From IMG/VR virus record IMGVR_UViG_2740892422_000002, positions 1-35,451 of that record: a stretch of 35,451 nt of DNA; one strand, 5' to 3'. Position 1 is the stretch's first letter; every line of letters begins with the position of its first letter. The notes beneath the pieces are model-generated. The model was not told the DNA's origin, ran no database searches, and was given only the letters and a program-made list of their open reading frames with translations. Origin of the DNA: a virus. Taxonomy: Duplodnaviria > Heunggongvirae > Uroviricota > Caudoviricetes. The position numbers and the translations under genes are program-made. Positions 1,037-34,297 of this stretch are shown one piece after another.

Positions 1037-4000
1037 TTACTCAATGCGCACGAACAAACAGATAAAGCCTCTGTCGCCATACGTTCCACGATAACCTGAC
1101 AGGGCCTGATAACGACCGGGAAAACTGAATGCCCCAGCACCACCCGCCTTTACTGAAGGTGTGGAAACATATGTCCCGGAATTATTAATTGCACAGTCGA
1201 TAGCCACAGGACCAAGTCGCGACCCCGCCACTACATCCCCAAGGCCAATTTTTATTTCCTTATCTCCTGCCGCTGTTCCCTGATAGACCGCGAGAATAAG
1301 AGAGCCAACTGCCGGATATTTGTAATATGAGGACGGGCCGTTGCCCGCCGTCCGGGACAGCAGGAAGGCCAGCGAATCGCCGTCGTAAATGACAGGGCTT
1401 ACTGTTGCATTCCAGTTGTTTCCACTCCAGCGATAAGTCAGGCGATGAATACTGTGCTCACCTTCGTAATACTGGTTAAAACACAGCAGCGTTTTGAATT
1501 TACGCGTTGTGTCCGATTCATCGTTATCAAAGGGCGACCACATCACATCAATGATGCCGTTAAATTTTGTGGTTCCTGCCAGTAGTGTGGAAGAATCCGC
1601 AATACTGACCGCATAACGCCCCGGGGTGACCTCTTTCAGCCACTCAGCAAAATCAGCCTGTCCATCAAATGCCAGTGCATCGGTGCTGGTAAATGCCTGA
1701 CCGAACCCATGCATACCAGACAGTGCCAGCCTGCCCGGTGTACGGTCGCGGATATCGCTCTGGGGTTCCATCGTCGCAGCCGCTTTCAGTTCAAGCTCCG
1801 TGCGCATGGCCTCAGACGTGTCCAGCGCCAGTAATGCGCGGGCTTTTTCTGACAGCTGTGCCAGTAAAACCCGGCCCTCTGCACTGAAATAAGGCAGTGT
1901 GTTTTCTTCCGGTGTTATCTGGCTGACAGCCGTTAACATGTCATTAAGCGGCTGCTTACCTGCCAGTGCATTAGTGACCGTTGTCGCAAAGTTCGGGTCA
2001 TTACCCAGCGCCGCTGCCAGCTCGTTCAGCGTGTCGAGGGCTTCCGGTGATGAGCCAACCAGCGCGGCAAGCAGTTTGCGGACAAACTCCGCATTGGCGA
2101 TTTCATTACCAGCTGCATCATCTGGCGGTGTTGGCGTTGTCGGCGTTCCGGTCAGTGCCGGGCTTTTCAGCGGTGCGCGGGTTTCAATCAGCGCCCGGAG
2201 TGAAGCCTCGTTGACTTTCAGGTTTTCCCAGCCAACCAGATAACCATCTCCGGCATTCCAGTAGCGATTGTAATAAATGTGGCCGTTAATACCGTAAAAA
2301 ATAATGATTTTAGCCACATATGCCGGATTGGGGTTGGTTTGAGGCTCCGGCCAGATAATTTCAACGGTACCATTGAACAGCACGCCCTGTATTACCGCAT
2401 TTGTATCTGCATAAACGGCATAGCGACCGGGTTTTGCCGTTTTTACCCAGCGGAGAAAATCGGTCTCTGTTTTAAACTCGGTTCTGTCGCCGCTGGAAAA
2501 TACTTTCCCGAATCCAAACATGCCGGGAATCGCCAGACGGCCTTCGGTGCGGTCGTAAATATTCTCCTGTGCATCCTTCTGTGCTGCATTGCCAAGTTGT
2601 GGCGTCAGATTCGTCCAGGTGACCGGGGCGGAGATATTATCGCCACGAACGGTCATAAGAATCCGTCCGTCTTTTCCAAAAAACAGAACCAGCTTTGTTG
2701 CTGTCTGGCTGGTTTTGTCGTCCCAGCCATTATCCAGCCAGATAATTTCTGTTATTCCGGTCGTCTCTTCCGTTTGTGTGGAAAAGGTGTAATACCGTCC
2801 CGGGTGCAGGTTATGCGCACTTTTGGCTATGGTCGCCATATCGCGGGCAATAATTGAACTTGCTCCGGCGTCCGTCATTCCGTAACCAAATGCACCTGGT
2901 AGCGCAACACGGCCTTCCGTGCTGTCGTAAAGGTCTGTCTGAATGTCCTTTACCGCCGCGCTTTTCAGCTCAAGCTCCGTGCGCATGGCTTCCACTGTGG
3001 CCTGTGCCAGCAGTGACCGGGCTTTTTCTGACAGCGGAGACAGTGAAGCATTCCCGTCCTGATTAAAGCACAGAAGATTATCTGCCCGTTCTTCCAGATT
3101 ACTGATTGCGGTTAACACGTCACTGAGTGGTTGTTTACCCGCCAGCGCGTTCATGATTGTTGTCGCAAACTCCGGGTCATTGCCCAGCGCCGCTGCCAGC
3201 TCGTTCAGTGTGTCCAGGGCTTCCGGTGACGAGTCAACCAGTGCGGCGAGCAGTTTGCGGACAAATGCCGCGTTCGCGGTTTCCAGACCGACTGCATCGT
3301 CCGGTGGGGTTGGTGTGGTTGGCGTACCCGTGAACGCCGGGCTGTCCAGCGGCGCTTTTGTTTTCGTCTCGTCCATGACGGCTTTGACAGCCTTTGGTGT
3401 GGCGGCCAGTTCTTCGCTGTCGTTGTCTGTATCACTACAGAGTTGCACCAGACCTTTTTGCGTCGTGCTGGCGTTGGTTCCTTTCAGGTCATCGACTATC
3501 CGTTGCGCCTCGTCCCTGTGCTGTTTCGCGTTCTGCTCGCTTTTTGCTGCCGCTTCGGCGCTGGCTTTTGCCTCGCCGGTCAGCGTTGCAGCATCAGCAA
3601 GTTTATCGACCGCTTTCTGGACTATCGCGTCAGCATCCTTGACAGCCTGTTCTGCGCGGGCGGCATTCTGGTTTGTTTCAGAGGCCAGCTCTTCAGCTTT
3701 CTGCACATTACCCGCAATTTCTTCTGCATCCTGCTGTATTTCCCCGGCGAGCGCTTCTGTATCCTGGCGGGCCTGTTCAGCAGCGGTGGCGTGCTCTCCT
3801 GCTTTTTCTGCGCTTTGCTGCGCCTGTTGCGCCAGCTCTTCGAATTTCTTCAGGGCTTCCGGGCGCAGGTCAATATCGGTTGCGCCCAGAAAATCATTCA
3901 GCGAACCGTCTGTCGAATCTTCATAAACGCGAATGACACCGATTTCTGAAAGGCGCTGTGTGCTTTGTGTCAGGCGAACGCTGTACACACCCGGCAGAAC

Positions 4001-5464: not shown

Positions 5465-6049
5465 TTATTCTCCGGTGTAATAATATTCATATTCCGTGCC
5501 CGCCAGCCGGTAATGCTTCAGCAGGCATTCCAGCTCGCGGGTCCGTTCGCTGATTAATGGCGTCATGACGTCATCAATACAGGTAAACCGCCCGGCATCT
5601 TTGTCCGGGACTTCCACTTTCAGCAGCCAGCGATACCGCGCCGGATGTAGCGGGTACATGCAGTCACGCAGGCAGTGGTGCGGCAGAACGGCCGTCACCT
5701 TAATAGTGAATCCCAGCGCCGCCGCAGCGGCTTCAATCTGCCAGGTGGCCAGCCCGCCTTTGCGGCGGTATTTCTCCACCACGGCCCGGCGGCGGGCTTC
5801 CGTTGTGGTGGCGGCAATTCCGCATTCCGGCAGCGCCAGATATTGCTCCCACTCCGGCAGCAACTGGAGCGTGGTTTCCGGTCGCATCTCCACATGCAGA
5901 CGCGAGGCGTCGTATTCAACGCGGGTTAAACGCTCTGCAAGCGCCCTTAAAAAACGGTTTAAATCCGCGTCGTTATCACGCGGCCATGCCTTACCCCGTG
6001 GCATGACCTGTTGCAGTGCGGTCAGCCATTCCGTCACGCTGTGAGCCAT
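5465..6049 (-). CDS. tail/baseplate protein (Mu gp48-like, DUF2313-type)
   Basis: 194-aa ORF directly after the baseplate-J gene; position and size match the Mu gp48 family. Confidence 0.55.
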   Translation of the reverse strand: MAHSVTEWLTALQQVMPRGKAWPRDNDADLNRFLRALAERLTRVEYDASRLHVEMRPETTLQLLPEWEQYLALPECGIAATTTEARRRAVVEKYRRKGGLATWQIEAAAAALGFTIKVTAVLPHHCLRDCMYPLHPARYRWLLKVEVPDKDAGRFTCIDDVMTPLISERTRELECLLKHYRLAGTEYEYYYTGE

Positions 6050-26384: not shown

Positions 26385-26882
26385 TCAGTTAACTTTACGG
26401 GCAGAACACGTAGTCTTCATTACTGAACGTTCAATTTTTATCTTCCAGCCATTTACTGTTTTTTCGACAGGATCATCTTCAGCTTGCTTTAAATTTTTAA
26501 CTTGCATGAAATTCAGCGGGGCTGGGGTATCATCGTCCCATGATGTCGGGCGAACATAATCAGGGACAACAAAAGGCTCAAAAACAGTTTCACATAAAGC
26601 AGACGTCATTTGAGCGAACTCGTCGCTATCGGGGCGAACCGGTCCTGTAACATACTGCATTTTTATGTTGATTTCGTTATCTCGCACAGACGTCTTTAAA
26701 TCCTGATATACACCTAAGTTAAATCCTTTAAACTCAGCAATGGCAGCGTCACCTTTACCGTACCAGTCGGTATAGTCAACGGATGTTTTTTTCTGAAAAA
26801 CATCTTTGACTTTTTGCTGGAATGTATCCGCCGCTTGTACAGTAGTAACAGTTAGTAAAAGAATAAGGGGAAGATATTTCAT
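26385..26882 (-). CDS. secreted/periplasmic protein of unknown function (AT-rich moron)
   Basis: 165-aa ORF with N-terminal signal peptide MKYLPLILLLTVTTVQA|AD; markedly AT-rich relative to flanking phage genes. Confidence 0.7.
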   Translation of the reverse strand: MKYLPLILLLTVTTVQAADTFQQKVKDVFQKKTSVDYTDWYGKGDAAIAEFKGFNLGVYQDLKTSVRDNEINIKMQYVTGPVRPDSDEFAQMTSALCETVFEPFVVPDYVRPTSWDDDTPAPLNFMQVKNLKQAEDDPVEKTVNGWKIKIERSVMKTTCSARKVN

Positions 26883-27280
26883 TGTTCGTCCTTAAATAGT
26901 TGCATTTGATATTTTCCACGCTCCAGTCGGCGCATTCTTTTGATGGCCTGATATACCGTTTTGTATGTCACTTTGTAACGCTGCACCAGCTCCGCTACGT
27001 TTTTCCCATCAAAATCACGCCAGATGCGCATGTCTCTGATAAGATTTTCCAGTATTTTCCCTTTCGGAACATATACCTGAATCCCACCGATATGATTGCA
27101 AATCGCCACTACCAGCTCAAGGGAGTGGGCAGGGTTAACTCCAAGCCTTATCAGCTCTTGTCGCAACAGAGCATTCAGCTCAGCCAGTAAAGATGGAAAT
27201 CCCGATTTTTCCTGAACATCATCAAAATATTCAAGGATACTGTCGTCCTGATAATCACCAAATAAATCCTGCTCTTTCAT
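26879..27280 (-). CDS. mor: Mor/C-family transcriptional activator
   Basis: 133-aa ORF with acidic N-terminus and C-terminal ...AHSLELVVAICNHIGGIQVYVPKG...YKTVYQAIKRMRR... resembling Mu Mor/C; located directly after the gemA-like gene. Confidence 0.7.
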   Translation of the reverse strand: MKEQDLFGDYQDDSILEYFDDVQEKSGFPSLLAELNALLRQELIRLGVNPAHSLELVVAICNHIGGIQVYVPKGKILENLIRDMRIWRDFDGKNVAELVQRYKVTYKTVYQAIKRMRRLERGKYQMQLFKDEQ

Positions 27281-27828
27281 AGAACTATTCTCCCGCTGTT
27301 TCTGGCGCGGGCATACGCACTGGTCAGTGCATCATATCCGCGCAGTTCCCGCCCGGTTTCGCTCACAGGTAAAGGCACGCCGTGTCGGGCAAAGGCTTCC
27401 CGAATGCAGCGCATATGCCACTGCTTGAGCGTTTCGAGCACAACCTGCAACGATTCCCCATGACACCAGGCCAGCGTGGAAACACCCTGACCACCATTAC
27501 GTCTGGCCGTCAGACGTTCAACGTATTTGTCCAGCGCGGCGTCGCTGATATCGGAGACGAAACCATCAAGAAACATCTGCTGCCAGATTTTATAAATCTT
27601 CTCGCGCGGTGTGACATGCCCCTTAAAGCGACGGCGGGGATGTTTTTTCTGCTTTTTAAAACCGCGCTCTTTCATGGCATCGAGCACTTGTTCCAGTTGT
27701 GCAACAGACAGCTCGCGGCAACTGGTTTTGCCCGTGCACTGCACCAGAAAAGCTCGGTAAGTGTCATCGTCGAGTTGCAACTCCCGACGGGCAACATGAA
27801 TTAATTTAATCAGGGATGTGCGGCTCAT
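27277..27828 (-). CDS. gemA: GemA-like early protein
   Basis: 183-aa ORF immediately upstream of mor, matching Mu gemA in position and size. Confidence 0.6.
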   Translation of the reverse strand: MSRTSLIKLIHVARRELQLDDDTYRAFLVQCTGKTSCRELSVAQLEQVLDAMKERGFKKQKKHPRRRFKGHVTPREKIYKIWQQMFLDGFVSDISDAALDKYVERLTARRNGGQGVSTLAWCHGESLQVVLETLKQWHMRCIREAFARHGVPLPVSETGRELRGYDALTSAYARARNSGRIVL

Positions 27829-28141
27829 TATGTCCCCCGGATTTAAAAATTAATTCAGTGTTGAATAGCTCTTTACTCATTCGCTGTAGCACATCGAGGG
27901 CGGCAACTGCCGCCACTTTATCCTGACTGGCAATGATTCCCCGCAACTCTTCGATAATCCATGCAGGGCTTAATGATTCAGCAATCATCGTGCGCTTTTC
28001 TGAAATTAAATTTTCTCTGGCCTGCTCATAGTGTTGGTATACGACATTATCCAGAAAATAATTTACCTCTTGTTCTGACATGCCACTGGAAATTAAGGTT
28101 GCAGCCATTAAATCAGCATCAGTAATCATCTGTATTTTCAT
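27806..28141 (-). CDS. hypothetical early protein (AT-rich accessory region)
   Basis: 111-aa acidic ORF between gam and gemA. Confidence 0.5.
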   Translation of the reverse strand: MKIQMITDADLMAATLISSGMSEQEVNYFLDNVVYQHYEQARENLISEKRTMIAESLSPAWIIEELRGIIASQDKVAAVAALDVLQRMSKELFNTELIFKSGGHNEPHIPD

Positions 28142-28316
28142 TTCTTAATACCTCTTCGCAATAAAAGATTTCATTGGGATAACGTTTTTGTATGCGCTCA
28201 ATCACCTGCATACATGCCTGCTCTGTGGGCCAGATTTTTTCTGTTGCCGGGATAGCATCACAGGCATCACTCCCGCAGGTGCCAACCAGCAGGACAAAGC
28301 CAATTGACTTAATCAT
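28119..28316 (-). CDS. small secreted or lipoprotein-like protein
   Basis: 65-aa product from ATG at 28316 (MIKSIGFVLLVGTCGSDACD...): N-terminal hydrophobic segment followed by Cys, with four further Cys. Confidence 0.45.
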   Translation of the reverse strand: MIKSIGFVLLVGTCGSDACDAIPATEKIWPTEQACMQVIERIQKRYPNEIFYCEEVLRNENTDDY

Positions 28317-28851
28317 GTTCACTGACTTCCTGTGTTGCTGCCGGAGCTGGTGAATAATCAAGAATGAGATAGCGCATGACGTGGTCGGTGATATTCCAGC
28401 CACTGGAACCACAAATAAAGCGCCCCAGCCGGATATCGATATACGCCATCACAAAACGGGGCATCCCCTGTTTGCACATCTCGTCATCCACTTCAGCAAC
28501 GATGTAAACCGACTCGCAGGTCAGTACGCCTGTCGCAAATTCTTTTGCCAGTGCCGGAATGGCATTGCCTTCCAGCCAGGGCAAAGAGCGGCGGAACGCG
28601 CACCATTGAGCATTATCAACAGCGGGGTGTTCCGTTGTTGCGTTTCGTCTTACTGGCGGCGTTGGACGAGGGCGCGGAACGTCATAAAATCCGTTACATT
28701 CAGTGAGAACTCCGGCATCAACCGCATCACGCAGGAAATACACCATTGACGAGGGCAGCATATTCATTTTTTCAGCCAGAACCCCGCAGGTCAGACGCCC
28801 GTAAGCCCGTAATAATGTGCTGACACCATTCAGAACTTTTGCATCAACCAT
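28309..28851 (-). CDS. hypothetical early protein, possible winged-helix N-domain
   Basis: 180-aa ORF; first gene after gam and a 98-bp spacer. Confidence 0.5.
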   Translation of the reverse strand: MVDAKVLNGVSTLLRAYGRLTCGVLAEKMNMLPSSMVYFLRDAVDAGVLTECNGFYDVPRPRPTPPVRRNATTEHPAVDNAQWCAFRRSLPWLEGNAIPALAKEFATGVLTCESVYIVAEVDDEMCKQGMPRFVMAYIDIRLGRFICGSSGWNITDHVMRYLILDYSPAPAATQEVSEHD

Positions 28852-28949
28852 TTTTTATTCCTCAGTAATCTGTTTCAGGCGCGAGCAATCCCCTGACGCA
28901 TCGCGCCATAATTAAAAGAAAGTGAACTAATTAAATATTAATGGTGGTA

Positions 28950-29474
28950 TTAAATACCGGCTTCCTGTTCAAACGGAATAATAGAAAAATCTTCAATGCC
29001 TGATTTAACTGTAATTCCGGCGACACCTGCGACTGCTTTCGGTTCCAGTAAAATCGCTTCCTTGTTGATTTCCTGTTTCGTGCGAATAAAGCGTTGCAGG
29101 CCAAGACGCTCCAGCGTTTCCATCACCGCATCCACACCGCGAATACTTACCGATGGTGGGCGCTGACGCCATGACACATCGCCGGTTACCAGGTTCGCCG
29201 TCTTCACCTTGCCGCCGTTCGTCAGTTCGTCGCGGTTCGCTTCACACCATCCCTGAACGCCTTTTGAAAGGGTTTCAATACTGGTTTTAAGGGGCGCAAT
29301 CTGTGAGGCGTATTTCTCAGTAATTTCAGCGATAGCGTCATTCATTTCCGTTTCAAGTCGTGCCGCTTCGCGTTGCAGGTCACCAATCCGGCGAATATCA
29401 CACACCACGGCATCGCGGGATTGCGGAACATAAGCTGCTGCGGCACTCTTGATTCGTTTTGCTGGTTTAGCCAT
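28950..29474 (-). CDS. gam: host-nuclease inhibitor Gam (Ku-like DNA end-binding protein)
   Basis: 174-aa ORF MAKPAKRIKSAAAAYVPQSRDAV... with coiled-coil; matches Mu Gam in length and sequence as recalled. Confidence 0.85.
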   Translation of the reverse strand: MAKPAKRIKSAAAAYVPQSRDAVVCDIRRIGDLQREAARLETEMNDAIAEITEKYASQIAPLKTSIETLSKGVQGWCEANRDELTNGGKVKTANLVTGDVSWRQRPPSVSIRGVDAVMETLERLGLQRFIRTKQEINKEAILLEPKAVAGVAGITVKSGIEDFSIIPFEQEAGI

Positions 29475-29494
29475 ATAAATAAAGCTCCTGTTAA

Positions 29495-29785
29495 TTAATA
29501 TTCGCTGTATACAATGCTGGATACAGCACGATTGCTTAATTCCATCTTTTGGGCAATGACATGAATAGCCAGCCCTTCTTTATAAAGTTCACGACACAAA
29601 TATTTGTCGTGCTCACTGACCCGGTATGCACACAACGATATTCCGTGCCTTCTGGCATGTGCCTGTAGGGCGGTTGGGGCAACGTTCAGTTTTTTCGCCA
29701 TTTCCTCGACGGTCATTTTCCCGACACTGGCTTCGATAAATTCCCGGTCTTCGCGTGACCATCTTTTGCGAGGGATTATCATCAT
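29495..29785 (-). CDS. small HTH-containing DNA-binding protein
   Basis: 96-aa product from ATG at 29785 with GGGAAGGAGG RBS; HTH-like segment TVEEMAKKLNVAPTALQAHARRHGIS. Confidence 0.5.
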   Translation of the reverse strand: MMIIPRKRWSREDREFIEASVGKMTVEEMAKKLNVAPTALQAHARRHGISLCAYRVSEHDKYLCRELYKEGLAIHVIAQKMELSNRAVSSIVYSEY

Positions 29786-29801
29786 GCCTCCTTCCCTGAA
29801 A

Positions 29802-30071
29802 TTAATGTTTGGCTGCATCCGGGTTATACCGGAATAACTCGCCTTCGGCTTCCAGCCCAAGTTCTCTGGCTGACTTCAACAACTCCTGGGTTGCTTTTTC
29901 AATAATTTCAGGAGCCATGCTCTTGATAATGCCTGCCATCACGTCATGTGGTCCGATTTGCGCCTTAGGTGACTGTTCTTTCAGTTGCACACTCATTCCT
30001 ACAAAGAAACCTCCTTTTTTCTGAAACTCAACATCTTCCATGCGGTTAAATTCAAAGATTACTTTTGCCAT
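29802..30071 (-). CDS. hypothetical early protein
   Basis: 89-aa product from ATG at 30071 with GAGGAA RBS (MAKVIFEFNRMEDVEFQKKGG...). Confidence 0.5.
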   Translation of the reverse strand: MAKVIFEFNRMEDVEFQKKGGFFVGMSVQLKEQSPKAQIGPHDVMAGIIKSMAPEIIEKATQELLKSARELGLEAEGELFRYNPDAAKH

Positions 30072-30099
30072 TTTGTTATTCCTCACAAATAAGCCGTTA

Positions 30100-30327
30100 T
30101 TAACGCCAGATAATCTGGCAACCATTAAGGCGGGCCGTCCATACGGAACGGGCAACCCCTGATTTATGCTCCATAATCCTGACAGCGTTTCTGACCAGCT
30201 CCGGTGGTGGGCAGGTGATTTCAAGTACCGGGCGGGCTACGCCCAGCCAGGATTCGTTGACGTGGCTGCCGTGCTCCTGTAACCAGGTCTTTACTTCCGT
30301 TGCCATTTTGATATTCCGTGACATCAT
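30100..30327 (-). CDS. kil: Kil-like small protein (by position after B)
   Basis: 75-aa product from ATG at 30327 with GGAGAG RBS, starting 13 nt after the B stop; assignment by synteny with Mu. Confidence 0.45.
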
Positions 30328-30340
30328 GATTTCGCTCTCC

Positions 30341-31279
30341 TTACGTGCGCAGCAGGGTTGAAATATCAACGTCGAGGTCTAATTCACGGAAAGCCTGACG
30401 CAGATAATCTTCATTAACACGTTCACCTTTGCCGTGGGCGGTCATGGCCGCAAGGCGCAGCGAGTGGTTCAGGATGCGAAGCGCACCTGGTTTTTGCGCA
30501 ATCTGCTGTAATAATTCCCGCTCGTTTTCGCCGGTAATTTGCCAGGCATCCGCAATGGCCTTTACATCATCAATTTTGGTTTTATTGATTGCCGTCCGTT
30601 TGGCAATACGGGAAAACAGTCGGGCAAATTCAACCGTTCTGTTACCACCGGTCATGTTTGAATAAACGCGGTGATTCCCCATCAGAACAAGGCCAATACG
30701 GGCGGATTCCTGCAACAGGCGGAGTTCTTCCAGAACTTCAGCGCCAAGATGATCAGCTTCGTCGATAATGACCAGCCCCTGCGTACCTTCAAGGCGGCGT
30801 CGCAAAGCGCGGGAGAGCGGCCCTTTGCGGCGCGGTGCGTCATTCATTCCCAGTTCATACGCCAGTTCAGTGAGACATTCCAGAACACTGGCGCAGGATG
30901 GGGTAATGGTGATCATCCAGACATTGTTATTGGTGCGACGAAATTCGCGGGCTGCTTCAGTTTTTCCCACACCTGGATTACCGCAGATAACAGAAATACT
31001 TTCAGTCAGGCTGGCAAAACGCATACTCGTCCAGATTTGGCGTGCTGTTCTGGTTTCCACAAAACGTGGTGGTTCTGGCAGCTCTGCGGCACGGTGATAG
31101 TTCTCCAGCCAGCGTTCCAGCGTCTGCGCAACACGTTCATTGTCGCCGTTGTACTTGTTATTCACGAATGCGCTTAACGTTCCTGCGGCCACGCCAGACT
31201 CGCGTGCAATTTGTGCATAAGTCGCTTTTTCACTTTCTACAAGCGTGCGCAGTCCTGCGCGAATATCGGAAATATTCAT
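30341..31279 (-). CDS. B: transposition ATPase / target DNA activator MuB
   Basis: 312-aa ORF with Walker A GNPGVGKT and Walker B IIDEADHL; near-identical to Mu B as recalled. Confidence 0.92.
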
Positions 31280-31317: not shown

Positions 31318-33309
31318 TTAAATGGCTTTTTTACGTCTGTTCTGTTCCAGAATATCCAGCGAATGATTCAGATATTCATCACGATCAGTTTCATATTCAT
31401 CATCGGGTTCCTGGTATTTCACCTGCACCGTGTTACCGGAAGGCCGGAAAATACCAACAACCCTTGATTCTGGCGCTGCTGGTTCGGCTATCTGCGGCAG
31501 CAGTTCAGCAATTTCCAGCGCGTCCATTTGTTTCTGCGCCTTAATGGCTGCTTTAGTTGCAGATTTCAGTTGTTTCTGGCGGCGGCGATATTCACGGCCT
31601 GCCGCAGCATCATTAAACGCAACAGGTGCCAGACATTCCGCTTCACAGATAAACCGACCGTCCAGGGTGTAGCAATAAACCGTGCTGTGTAGCTGTTGTG
31701 GATCAAATCTGACCACAACTTTTTTCACTCCGGCATTCATTAACGCCATGTTGTAATAAACGTTTTTCGCGCCTTTAAGGGAGCCGCCAACTTTAAGCGT
31801 AAACTCGCCTTTGCGTGAAACGTTCACCGCCTCGGCAGGCAGTAACAGCATCCGTTTTTGTTCTTCGGTTGGCTTACGCACAATCGTTCTGGCGTATTCA
31901 CGCTCGAAAACATCATCAAACGAGAGTTTGCCCCCGCACATTTCTGTTTCACGGCCTGTTCTGGCATTGAACATCGCCACACCTTCGGCAAGGGTTTTCA
32001 GAAACAGCTCTGCATCAACAGCGCGGTCGCCATAGTTATCAGGTTTTGCCTGCGGATTTGGCCCCGTATATGCGCCAGCCAGTGCCGGATGCTTATCAAC
32101 GTATTCCTCAAGCCCACCAACACCGAAAGCACGTTCAACAGGTTTTGCCTGGCCCCAGCCTTTACCGGCAACAACGCTTGTCCAGTGCATTTTCGCGCCC
32201 ATCAGTAAAAACAGTCCCTTTGGATCGTCCTCTTTTACCTTAAAGCGGTAACGATTGGGCGCGCCTCCCGTCAGCCATTTATTCGCTGCACCACGGGTGT
32301 TATCAATGGTGATGTGAAAATCCTCCGGGATACCGTAGCGAGTCACAACATCCATGAACGAGAGGCGAATTGAATCAATGTTCTCGCTCACATCGCAGCG
32401 CCAGCCCAGAATTTTTCGGGTTTTCACATCCTGCCAGAACCATGTTTTCGGGCGGATCACATCACCGTTAAACCAGCGTACAAAGACGTTATGCAGATAA
32501 CCGTCGCCGTTGATCCACTGCATGGCGTCCAGGTGTTCCACAGTTCGTTGCTGTGCCGGTATCAGATGCATCAGTGCATGTTCACCTTCACGGCAGGCAA
32601 CAACCATTGCCTCGTCCAGTTGCTGAATCCGGCGAAAGGCCGTGGCACGGGAGGGAATATTCCAGTCATGCTCACGTGCTGCCAGTTCCAGACGCTCATA
32701 ACATTTGCGAAAGGCGGGTTTTTCCGGTCGCAGATAATCTGCAATCAGAAACTGCCAGGCATCCTCGTCAAATTCACTTTTGTGAACGTTGCGACGGGAT
32801 GCACCACGGCCATCAACAAGCGCAGCCGCCCAGTCAGACTTCGCAAACTTCTGTACCTGGTAATATTTGTCCCGCAAAGTGGATGCGCTGACCTGGTAAT
32901 GTCCAGCAACGGTCGCAAATGCCGTTTTCGTTGAAATCCCCTGGTTCAGCATTTCGTCTGCAGCCTGAACCGCAGGCAACCATTTTTCAGCAAGTCTGCG
33001 CTGGGAATCGCTGGCGTTATCCCATTTGCTCCACAGTGCCTCACGATCATAATCATGGGCTTCCAGCGTGGGGCGGGCGATTTCAAAACGGCCCAGGCTT
33101 GTTTCAATCTCTCCTTGTCTAAGCAATAACGCCGCTTTCGCTTCAACAGGTAAAGAGTTAGCATTGTATTCAATTGCTTTACCTCCTTTGACACCTGCTC
33201 TAGTGCGGTTTTGCCATCCTTGCTTTTTAGCGACATAAATCACACCAGCTGATGTTTTCGGCAAGCCAGGAAGATTCGCACACTCTTTCGGTGACACCCA
33301 AAGTTCCAT
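31318..33309 (-). CDS. A: DDE transposase MuA
   Basis: 663-aa product from ATG at 33309 ([15 protein letters not shown]...), one nucleotide after the ner stop; matches Mu A. The ORF-track 685-aa version carries a spurious 22-aa N-terminal extension. Confidence 0.92.
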
Positions 33310-33310
33310 A

Positions 33311-33538
33311 TTATTCACCTGCTTGATATCGGCTAGGCCAGATGACTTCCGGTTTAGTTTCAAGGGCGTTAGCAATAATCTGTTCGCCCTTTGGCCAGTG
33401 CCGTTCTAGCGCATTAGCTAATGTTGTTGGCGCATAACCAAACTGCCGAGAAAGAGCTGATAAAGAGAGCTTTCTTTTCTTAAGTCCCGCAATCACATCA
33501 GCACGATGCCAATCACGGACCTTTTCGTTGGAACACAT
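33311..33538 (-). CDS. ner: Ner DNA-binding regulator (negative regulator of early transcription)
   Basis: 75-aa [55 protein letters not shown]...; matches Mu Ner. Confidence 0.9.
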
Positions 33539-33706: not shown

Positions 33707-34297
33707 TTGAAAAGTAACTTTACAGAATCCACTGATACTAAAAAGTCAATCTGGTGTACGCCGCAAGAAATTATGGCTGCTGATGGTATGCCTGGATCTG
33801 TTGCAGGTGTTCACTATCGGGCAAATGTTCAAGGCTGGACAAAGCGAAAAAAGGAAGGTGTGAAGGGGGGAAAAGCAGTTGAATACGATGTGATGTCTAT
33901 GCCCACCAAAGAACGAGAGCAAGTTATTGCACACCTAGGTCTGTCTATTCCTGGCACTGCTGCTCAAGCTAATGAGCAGCAGGATTCTTCGGAGCTGATA
34001 AACAAATTAACCACAACCTTAATCAATATGATTGAAGAACTGGAACCAGATGAAGCACGTAAGGCACTGAAACTTTTAAGCAAAGGTGGACTATTGGCGT
34101 TAATGCCACTTGTATTTAATGAACAGAAACTTTACAGCTTTATAGGATTTTCACAGCAAAGTATCCAGACGTTGATGATGCTAGATGCATTACCTGAAGA
34201 AAAACGCAAAGAGATTTTGTCAAAGTATGGGATTAATGAACAGGAGAGCCTTGTAGCTCCTTTGCAGGATCCACAAGATGTAAAAAAAGCCGTATAA
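33707..34297 (+). CDS. c: Mu-type repressor c
   Basis: 196-aa ORF (M)KSNFTESTDTKKSIWCTPQEIMAADGMPGSVAGVHYRANVQGW...; matches Mu repressor; begins with TTG at 33707 immediately after an in-frame stop. Confidence 0.88.
   Translation: MKSNFTESTDTKKSIWCTPQEIMAADGMPGSVAGVHYRANVQGWTKRKKEGVKGGKAVEYDVMSMPTKEREQVIAHLGLSIPGTAAQANEQQDSSELINKLTTTLINMIEELEPDEARKALKLLSKGGLLALMPLVFNEQKLYSFIGFSQQSIQTLMMLDALPEEKRKEILSKYGINEQESLVAPLQDPQDVKKAV

Follow-up and report, generated by a model that had tools for sequence, protein, structure and literature searches.

Introduction

Bacteriophages Mu, D108, and SfMu carry four small genes between kil and gam, in the order kil-gp6-gp7-gp8-gp9-gam. Mosaic gene content is well known in this semi-essential region of Mu. 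One of the four genes, Mu gp7 (also called E6 or Mup07; NP_050611.1), now has the name gnarl2, given by Silas et al. (Nat Commun 2025), who tested NP_050611.1 as orf63 (PMC12373910). Expression of gnarl2 caused a downward shift of the O-antigen bands in ECOR1 and ECOR22, and both strains were sensitized to T5 (PMC12373910). The O-antigen phenotype was reported for the Mu allele only (PMC12373910).

In a search of the literature on gp9 (E8), we found no functional study of this gene from any Mu-like phage. SfMu ORF9 has been termed a protein of unknown function (PMC4406740), and the RefSeq label on Mu gp9 is “transcriptional regulator, D5-like.” The D5 protein of phage T5 (255 amino acids [aa]; T5.118, YP_006946.1) is described in its database record as an early DNA-binding protein that replication and late transcription require and that is involved in shut-off. 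T5 and the Mu-like phages that carry gp9 are very different phage types.

Here we compare these systems with the kil-gam interval of a Mu-like prophage found in reverse orientation in IMG/VR record IMGVR_UViG_2740892422_000002. The whole stretch of DNA analyzed, 35,451 nucleotides, is referred to as the window, and the two genes of interest are referred to by their lengths as ORF96 and ORF89.

Results

Gene content of the kil-gam interval

A preliminary description of this DNA had placed two small early genes between kil and gam. Both open reading frames (ORFs) are indeed there, on the minus strand (Table 1), and the order in the window is kil-gp7-gp9-gam. Mu was correctly said to have more genes in this interval, with gp6 to gp9 making four against the two of the window. 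A 1.5-kb segment (28900-30400) has 100% identity to the chromosomes of the pig enterotoxigenic Escherichia coli (ETEC) strains ETEC1732, ETEC1734, and ETEC1703; in the ETEC1732 prophage, PGAP calls the matching coding sequences (CDSs) as hypothetical proteins.

The boundaries of the gene cassettes fall exactly at stop codons and ribosome-binding sites (RBSs). In Mu, gp6 directly follows kil; in the window, it is missing between the kil stop codon and the gp7 RBS. In relatives with gp8, the gp7 stop codon is followed by sequence that leads into the gp8 RBS, whereas in the window this sequence leads into the RBS of gp9, and the gp7-gp9 spacer diverges from the gp8-containing relatives exactly at the Shine-Dalgarno sequence of ORF96. 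E. coli genomes hold all the intermediates, with neither gp6 nor gp8, with gp8 only, or with both. Of the 30 complete E. coli genomes that matched best, 27 had the compact layout, which was also found in 4 of 54 viral loci that were selected through the B gene (see below). We conclude that gp6 and gp8 are missing through ordinary cassette-like mosaicism among prophages.

We scanned the coding (minus) strand from 28800 to 30500 and detected no promoter-like or terminator-like sites. Given this result, together with the tight spacing of the genes and their RBSs, the data fit cotranscription of ORF96 and ORF89 from Pe. A separate transcription unit for the two genes was considered and rejected, since neither an internal promoter nor a terminator, which it would have needed, was detected on the coding strand. 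We interpret the interval as a naturally compact version of the segment between kil and gam in the Mu early (Pe) operon.

TABLE 1 Positions of genes and sequence elements in the early region of the prophage (numbering of the window)
Feature	Position	Strand	Description or basis
Mu-type repressor gene c	33707-34297	+	
ner	33311-33538	-	
A	31318-33375	-	Transposition gene
B	30341-31279	-	Transposition gene
kil	30100..30327	-	75 aa; upstream flank; phrog_2743, E=5e-39
Shine-Dalgarno sequence of ORF89, GAGGA	30080..30084	-	Sequence read
Block common to Mu-type gp7	30046..30077	-	Spacer upstream of start plus first 9 codons (MAKVI.E..); blastn
ORF89 (D108 gp7 ortholog by sequence)	29802..30071	-	89 aa plus stop; phrog_2230, E=5e-36, residues 1-89 of 89
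Shine-Dalgarno sequence of ORF96, AAGGAGG	29787..29793	-	In the 16-nt gp7-gp9 spacer; sequence read
ORF96 (gp9/E8 ortholog by sequence)	29495..29785	-	96 aa plus stop; phrog_323, E=7e-27
Predicted HTH domain 1 of ORF96	29636..29761	-	Residues ~9-50; helices 11-20, 26-33, 37-46; basic arm RKRW before it
Predicted HTH domain 2 of ORF96	29501..29617	-	Residues ~57-95; helices 58-69, 74-80, 85-94
gam	28950..29474	-	174 aa; downstream flank; Pfam Phage_Mu_Gam, E=2e-43; phrog_491, E=2e-74
gp11-like gene	28309-28851	-	PF25754 Gp11_C
gemA	27277-27828	-	After 336-nt ORF (phrog_1988)
mor	26879-27280	-	After gemA

ORF96 is assigned to gp9

ORF96 shares 86% amino acid identity with Mu gp9, 86% with D108 gp9, and 93% with SfMu gp9, over the full length except for the first few residues. 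Like ORF96, the gp9 genes of Mu, D108, and SfMu lie immediately upstream of gam, encode 95 to 99 aa, and match phrog_323. ORF96 shares its strand with A, B, and kil, and the same order is seen in 46 IMG/VR loci. On the basis of megablast matches and RefSeq annotations, we identify ORF96 as the direct ortholog of Mu gp9 (E8, Mup09, NP_050613.1), D108 gp9, and SfMu ORF9. The preliminary description had proposed ORF96 as an additional early regulator; since Mu carries its ortholog, it is not an extra gene.

Mu gp9 differs from ORF96 in its upstream neighbor, which is gp8 in Mu and gp7 in the window, and in its first 4 to 8 residues. The N terminus of gp9 is variable among its homologs and begins with MMIIP, MVTDMKCN, or MTCN. 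DNA homology to Mu extends from gam across most of ORF96 and ends at position 29761, inside the first 8 codons (blastn); because of this end point, we regard the variable N terminus as a mosaic junction with the upstream cassette.

The RBS that had been noted for ORF96 is present upstream of the gene as AAGGAGG. The distance from AGGAGG is 1 nt to the first ATG and 4 nt to the second. In the identical ETEC1732 prophage, PGAP picks the second ATG (a 288-nt CDS encoding 95 aa), and the majority of database homologs of ORF96 are 95 aa long. For these two reasons, the true start is probably the second ATG (29782), giving a product of 95 aa (29495..29782).

Among 46 ungapped orthologs of ORF96, there were no internal stop codons, and the dN/dS ratio was 0.16. 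The ratio was 0.19 among ORF89 orthologs; for comparison, it was 0.09 for kil, 0.09 for gam, and 0.03 for B. Judged from sequence conservation, ORF96 and ORF89 are genuine genes, beyond chance ORFs.

One deposited genome (LR595867.1, Escherichia virus Mu_3F6, positions 5603-5887) labels gp9 as “COG1209: dTDP-glucose pyrophosphorylase.” We rejected this label, which has no Pfam, PHROG, or fold support; on a 95-aa helix-turn-helix (HTH) protein it is likely an annotation artifact.

Conservation of gp9 among Mu relatives

To avoid ascertainment through gp9 itself, we gathered IMG/VR loci through MuB and scored the genes downstream of B. The resulting set comprised 54 loci with a B identity of at least 70% whose sequence continued for at least 2.5 kb downstream. 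All 54 had kil, and 52 had a member of the gp9 family; gam was present in 33, gp8 in 29, and gp6 in 19. A gp7 gene of either type was found in 32 loci, 23 with the type of D108 and the window and 9 with the Mu type. In Klebsiella, Raoultella, and Pluralibacter, Mu-like prophages (L056-L080 and L082-L085; e.g., L057, 3483-4912) keep B, kil, and a gp9 homolog (~50% identity), which stands directly after kil or after one unrelated ORF. In this group, a DUF3164 protein (E=5e-86) follows gp9 and replaces gam.

From the presence of gp9 in 52 of 54 loci and its retention where gam is replaced by DUF3164, we conclude that gp9 is the near-core gene between kil and gam among the enterobacterial relatives of Mu; gp6, gp7, and gp8 are accessory. 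Indeed, gp9 is the sole kil-gam gene that nearly all of these relatives have kept, more often than gam, and it is a conserved HTH protein of a classic model phage. Among more distant Mu-like loci, with MuB identities of ~50%, gp9 was detected in 0 of 16.

In only 2 of the 54 loci, L117 and L135, no gene of the gp9 family was detectable in the 4 kb that follow B.

Predicted structure of ORF96

The preliminary description had noted an HTH segment in ORF96. This was an understatement, in that the AlphaFold2 (AF2) model (pLDDT, 80.8), built from an alignment of 16 sequences, has six helices that form two three-helix HTH bundles joined by a linker of ~10 residues. HTH domain 1 is similar to the DNA-binding domain of GcrA and to Myb repeats. 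The motif LCRELYKEGL..VIA.KMELS..V..IVY, which is the best conserved in the family, lies in HTH domain 2. Across residues 61 to 80, AF2 blocks had a mean pLDDT of 90 to 91, and L63, C64, I77, K80, M81, and E82 are columns that stay invariant even among relatives with as little as 35% identity. With a pI of 9.2, the protein is basic.

None of the Pfam and NCBIfam models matched ORF96 at its curated cutoff. Sub-threshold HTH matches from these collections fell into two separate stretches, residues 22 to 46 and residues 66 to 91, the latter with weak matches to GerE, HTH_23, and HTH_40. An internal sequence repeat was considered and rejected: Smith-Waterman alignment of the two halves gave a score of 21, compared to a shuffle mean of 18.9, and 567 of 2,000 shuffles scored as high, so the halves are not significantly similar. 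As there is no significant sequence repeat, the two-domain claim rests on the structure model.

Among the fold neighbors of ORF96 are HTH domains from transposases and recombinases (IstA, Tc3, and resolvases); other structural neighbors are sigma-70 region 4 domains, a sigma/anti-sigma complex, and small-terminase N-domains. Searches of PDB sequences with ORF96 gave sub-threshold matches only (2lvs, E=0.18). In the model, ORF96 shares the fold of the N-terminal DNA-binding domain of GcrA (PDB 5yiu; PF07750); it had no match to the Pfam GcrA model at E≤0.1. The C-terminal sigma-70-binding domain of GcrA is missing from the 96-aa ORF96, where a second HTH makes up the C-terminal half. Two tri-helical HTHs with a short linker, as predicted for ORF96, are also found in Tc3 transposase (1u78), Myb R2R3, and archaeal Cbp1/Cbp2 (2lvs). 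The sequence matches of ORF96 to Cbp1 (NF040595) and 2lvs are weak and far under the family cutoffs, and shared ancestry with these tandem-HTH readers (Tc3, Myb, and Cbp1/Cbp2) appears unsupported beyond the HTH superfamily.

A HMMER profile search of 1.84 billion representative sequences identified 997 relatives of ORF96 at E≤1e-3. Some are ~96-aa look-alikes with 35 to 47% identity, others are ~150 aa long with an extra N-terminal unit, and many are long proteins with 4 to 10 tandem copies of the first unit. Several of the multi-repeat relatives pass the Pfam thresholds for GcrA, Myb, or HTH_23, and the GcrA model is matched at its threshold by relatives of this kind only.

Relationship of gp9 to T5 D5

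Residues 4 to 95 of ORF96 match positions 144 to 244 of the 319 positions of phrog_323. T5 D5 matches the same family (E=1e-71), which is the source of the “D5-like” label. Residues 138 to 230 of D5 align with the whole of gp9, including both HTH units, at a modest hhalign probability of 72% (E=3e-5). The N-terminal 137 residues of D5 are missing from gp9, so the link covers the HTH half only, and ORF96 does not have the full-length D5 architecture (~255 aa, with an N-terminal region and the HTH units). A tblastn search with ORF96 gave no T5 match at E≤1e-3, placing the link at the profile level only. Based on the membership in phrog_323, the alignment to D5 residues 138 to 230, and the lack of a tblastn match, gp9 resembles the HTH half of D5 in a minimal form and is not a full D5 homolog.

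ORF89 and the gp7 slot

The 89-aa ORF had been left unassigned in the preliminary description. It has 75% amino acid identity and 83% nucleotide identity to D108 gp7 (YP_003335755.1); both proteins are 89 aa long, occupy the same slot, and belong to phrog_2230. By these comparisons, ORF89 is the ortholog of D108 gp7. D108 gp7 is flanked by gp6 and gp8, whereas ORF89 is flanked directly by kil and gp9. ORF89 encodes a small soluble protein that is acidic (pI 5.7).

ORF89 is the positional counterpart of Mu gp7/Gnarl2. Gnarl2 occupies the slot of ORF89 (after kil or gp6 and before gp8 or gp9), has a similar size, starts with MAKVI.E, and has a final His; both proteins are small and lack an enzyme-like domain. 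The amino acid identity of ORF89 to Mu gp7 and to SfMu gp7 (E6) is 19%, and BLASTP of ORF89 against Mu gp7 returned no alignment. When D108-type and Mu-type gp7 were compared using hhalign, only residues 1 to 13 aligned (probability, 43 to 50%). Removal of the N-terminal 10 to 13 residues left no significant match (E=0.11; probability, 0.5%), also with IMG/VR alleles added, including those of the “TWLESS” class described below. The block shared with Mu-type gp7 (Table 1) is 90.6% identical to Mu over 32 nt and 86.8% identical to SfMu over 38 nt (blastn). It is the sole DNA similarity to Mu in the gp7 slot and reads as a mosaic boundary.

The AF2 model of ORF89 consists of a hairpin and one long helix and is unreliable (pLDDT, 57), and a Foldseek search of viral structures with the model returned nothing at E≤0.001. 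For these reasons, we make no fold claim for ORF89. A search of PDB sequences gave an irrelevant sub-threshold match only.

Three deeply diverged allele classes, which have the first 9 to 13 residues in common, occupy the gp7 slot: Mu/Gnarl2, D108/window, and “TWLESS.” A slot whose Mu allele alters O antigen has at least three versions, and the D108/window type outnumbers the Mu type (23 versus 9 of the 54 loci).

Members of the “TWLESS” class begin with MAKVIFEFTWLESS. They have ~40% identity to ORF89 and are clearly related to the D108 type. The class was found in at least 10 IMG/VR loci (L025, L027, L039, and L040, among others, at ~3279-3545), always with gp6 and gp8.

Neither ORF96 nor ORF89 is new, since RefSeq and the reference genomes of the Mu family already contain both genes and published ETEC chromosomes carry an identical segment; the interval consists of known genes and known mosaicism. 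For annotation, the 96-aa ORF can be described as “Mu gp9/E8 ortholog, tandem-HTH protein” and the 89-aa ORF as “D108-type gp7, positional allele of gnarl2,” assignments that follow the sequence comparisons above.

Possible functions of gp9 and ORF89

We think it fairly probable that the early protein ORF96/gp9 binds DNA in a bipartite manner and that ORF89, in the slot of gnarl2, is an accessory protein directed at the host. The comparisons above establish the orthology, fold, conservation pattern, and mosaic gene content; DNA binding, regulation, and an effect on the envelope or O antigen are inferences. Most likely, the recognition helices of both HTH domains contact double-stranded DNA, and gp9 would act as a bipartite reader. 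By analogy, its binding mode may resemble that of Tc3, Myb R2R3, or the C-terminal half of T5 D5. The protein would act in early lytic development, in the control of transcription or in another DNA transaction. Both genes of the interval proved to be direct Mu-family orthologs, and the regulatory DNA-binding role suggested for ORF96 in the preliminary description stays plausible, as a putative one. ORF89 belongs to the D108-type alleles of a hypervariable gp7 slot and most likely encodes a host-directed accessory protein; the positional match to Gnarl2 suggests, by analogy, that it may be directed at the envelope.

Instead of regulating transcription, gp9 could be a DNA-binding accessory of transposition, replication, or nucleoid handling. 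It might, for example, be the genetically defined semi-essential early function arm or cim, binding to the DNA of Mu or of the host and thereby aiding replicative transposition or immunity control. Such a role would suit its position in the semi-essential early region, after A, B, and kil and adjoining gam. The transposase and recombinase HTHs (IstA, Tc3, and resolvases) among its fold relatives point the same way, as does the T5 D5 record, which names DNA replication besides late transcription. However, these fold matches are generic to tri-helical HTHs, and we found no literature that maps arm or cim to the gp9 ORF. Moreover, the absence of gp9 from all 16 of the distant Mu-like loci indicates that it is dispensable for the transposition machinery as such, and we consider the accessory role unlikely. 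HTH-like three-helix bundles also serve protein-protein contacts, as in sigma region 4 and small terminases, and phage early proteins frequently target RNA polymerase. The bundles of gp9 might accordingly bind protein and not DNA, for example by mimicking sigma region 4 or the GcrA domain and redirecting RNA polymerase or another host protein. The sigma-70 region 4 domains, sigma/anti-sigma complex, and small-terminase N-domains among its structural neighbors are in line with this idea, as are weak matches of ORF96 to Sigma70_r4_2 and ECF-sigma models. Nevertheless, we judge protein binding to be quite improbable. The pI of 9.2, the RKRW arm, and conserved Arg/Lys residues in and after helix 3 are typical traits of DNA readers; relatives of gp9 form long tandem arrays, as in DNA-tracking Myb-like proteins; and T5 D5, the best-characterized member of the family, is described as DNA binding.

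For ORF89, there is a substantial chance, although we lean the other way, that the protein is functionally unrelated to Gnarl2. It would then be a nonhomologous replacement that shares a translation initiation region and has another target, such as a defense system or host pathway. Consistent with this, similarity to Gnarl2 is undetectable past residues 1 to 13, the two types belong to separate PHROGs (phrog_2230 for D108-type gp7 and phrog_10252 for Mu gp7), and the only DNA similarity to Mu is a 32-nt stretch at the 5′ end, as is typical of a mosaic junction. On the other hand, ORF89 (89 aa) and Mu gp7 (87 aa) are nearly equal in length and share a C-terminal His, and their families align with only two one-residue gaps. 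Mu gp7 also has a weak, nearly end-to-end match to phrog_2230 (E=0.009; residues 1 to 78 to profile positions 1 to 80), and the two types occupy an identical slot and are mutually exclusive. The shared slot, the lengths, the gaps, and the phrog_2230 match are compatible with very fast divergence of one ancestral gene. We still prefer to read ORF89 as a host-directed accessory protein that occupies the slot of gnarl2. A joint reading of both genes, which we regard as doubtful, would make gp9 an overlooked near-core DNA-binding factor and the gp7 slot a diversifying locus, each of whose three allele classes would retarget the biosynthesis of the host envelope or O antigen in a manner specific to the strain. 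In this joint reading, gp9 would be of the minimal two-HTH T5 D5 type and may act in transcription shut-off or redirection or in a semi-essential function. If the gp7 slot does diversify in this way, the allele of the ETEC prophage would remodel the host surface.

Additional observations

The region 3′ of gam (27806..28851, minus strand) contains the gp11-like gene, followed by a 198-nt ORF and then a 336-nt ORF (phrog_1988). Its content is also unlike that of Mu, and gp12, gp13, and gp14 of Mu seemingly do not have the same representation.

In some E. coli prophages, the gene in the gp7 slot is frameshifted near its 3′ end, and the copy in STEC346 is flagged as “frameshifted” by PGAP. Three database proteins (P0051, P0055, and P0060) end in ...GNYSAITRMQPDINSQRNADNERQNPK, and L005 (1641-1912) is among the loci concerned. 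The shifted frame is the frame that is open upstream of ORF96 (29495..29860, minus strand; a TTG ORF of 121 aa). This frameshift probably reflects decay or sequencing indels and not programmed frameshifting.
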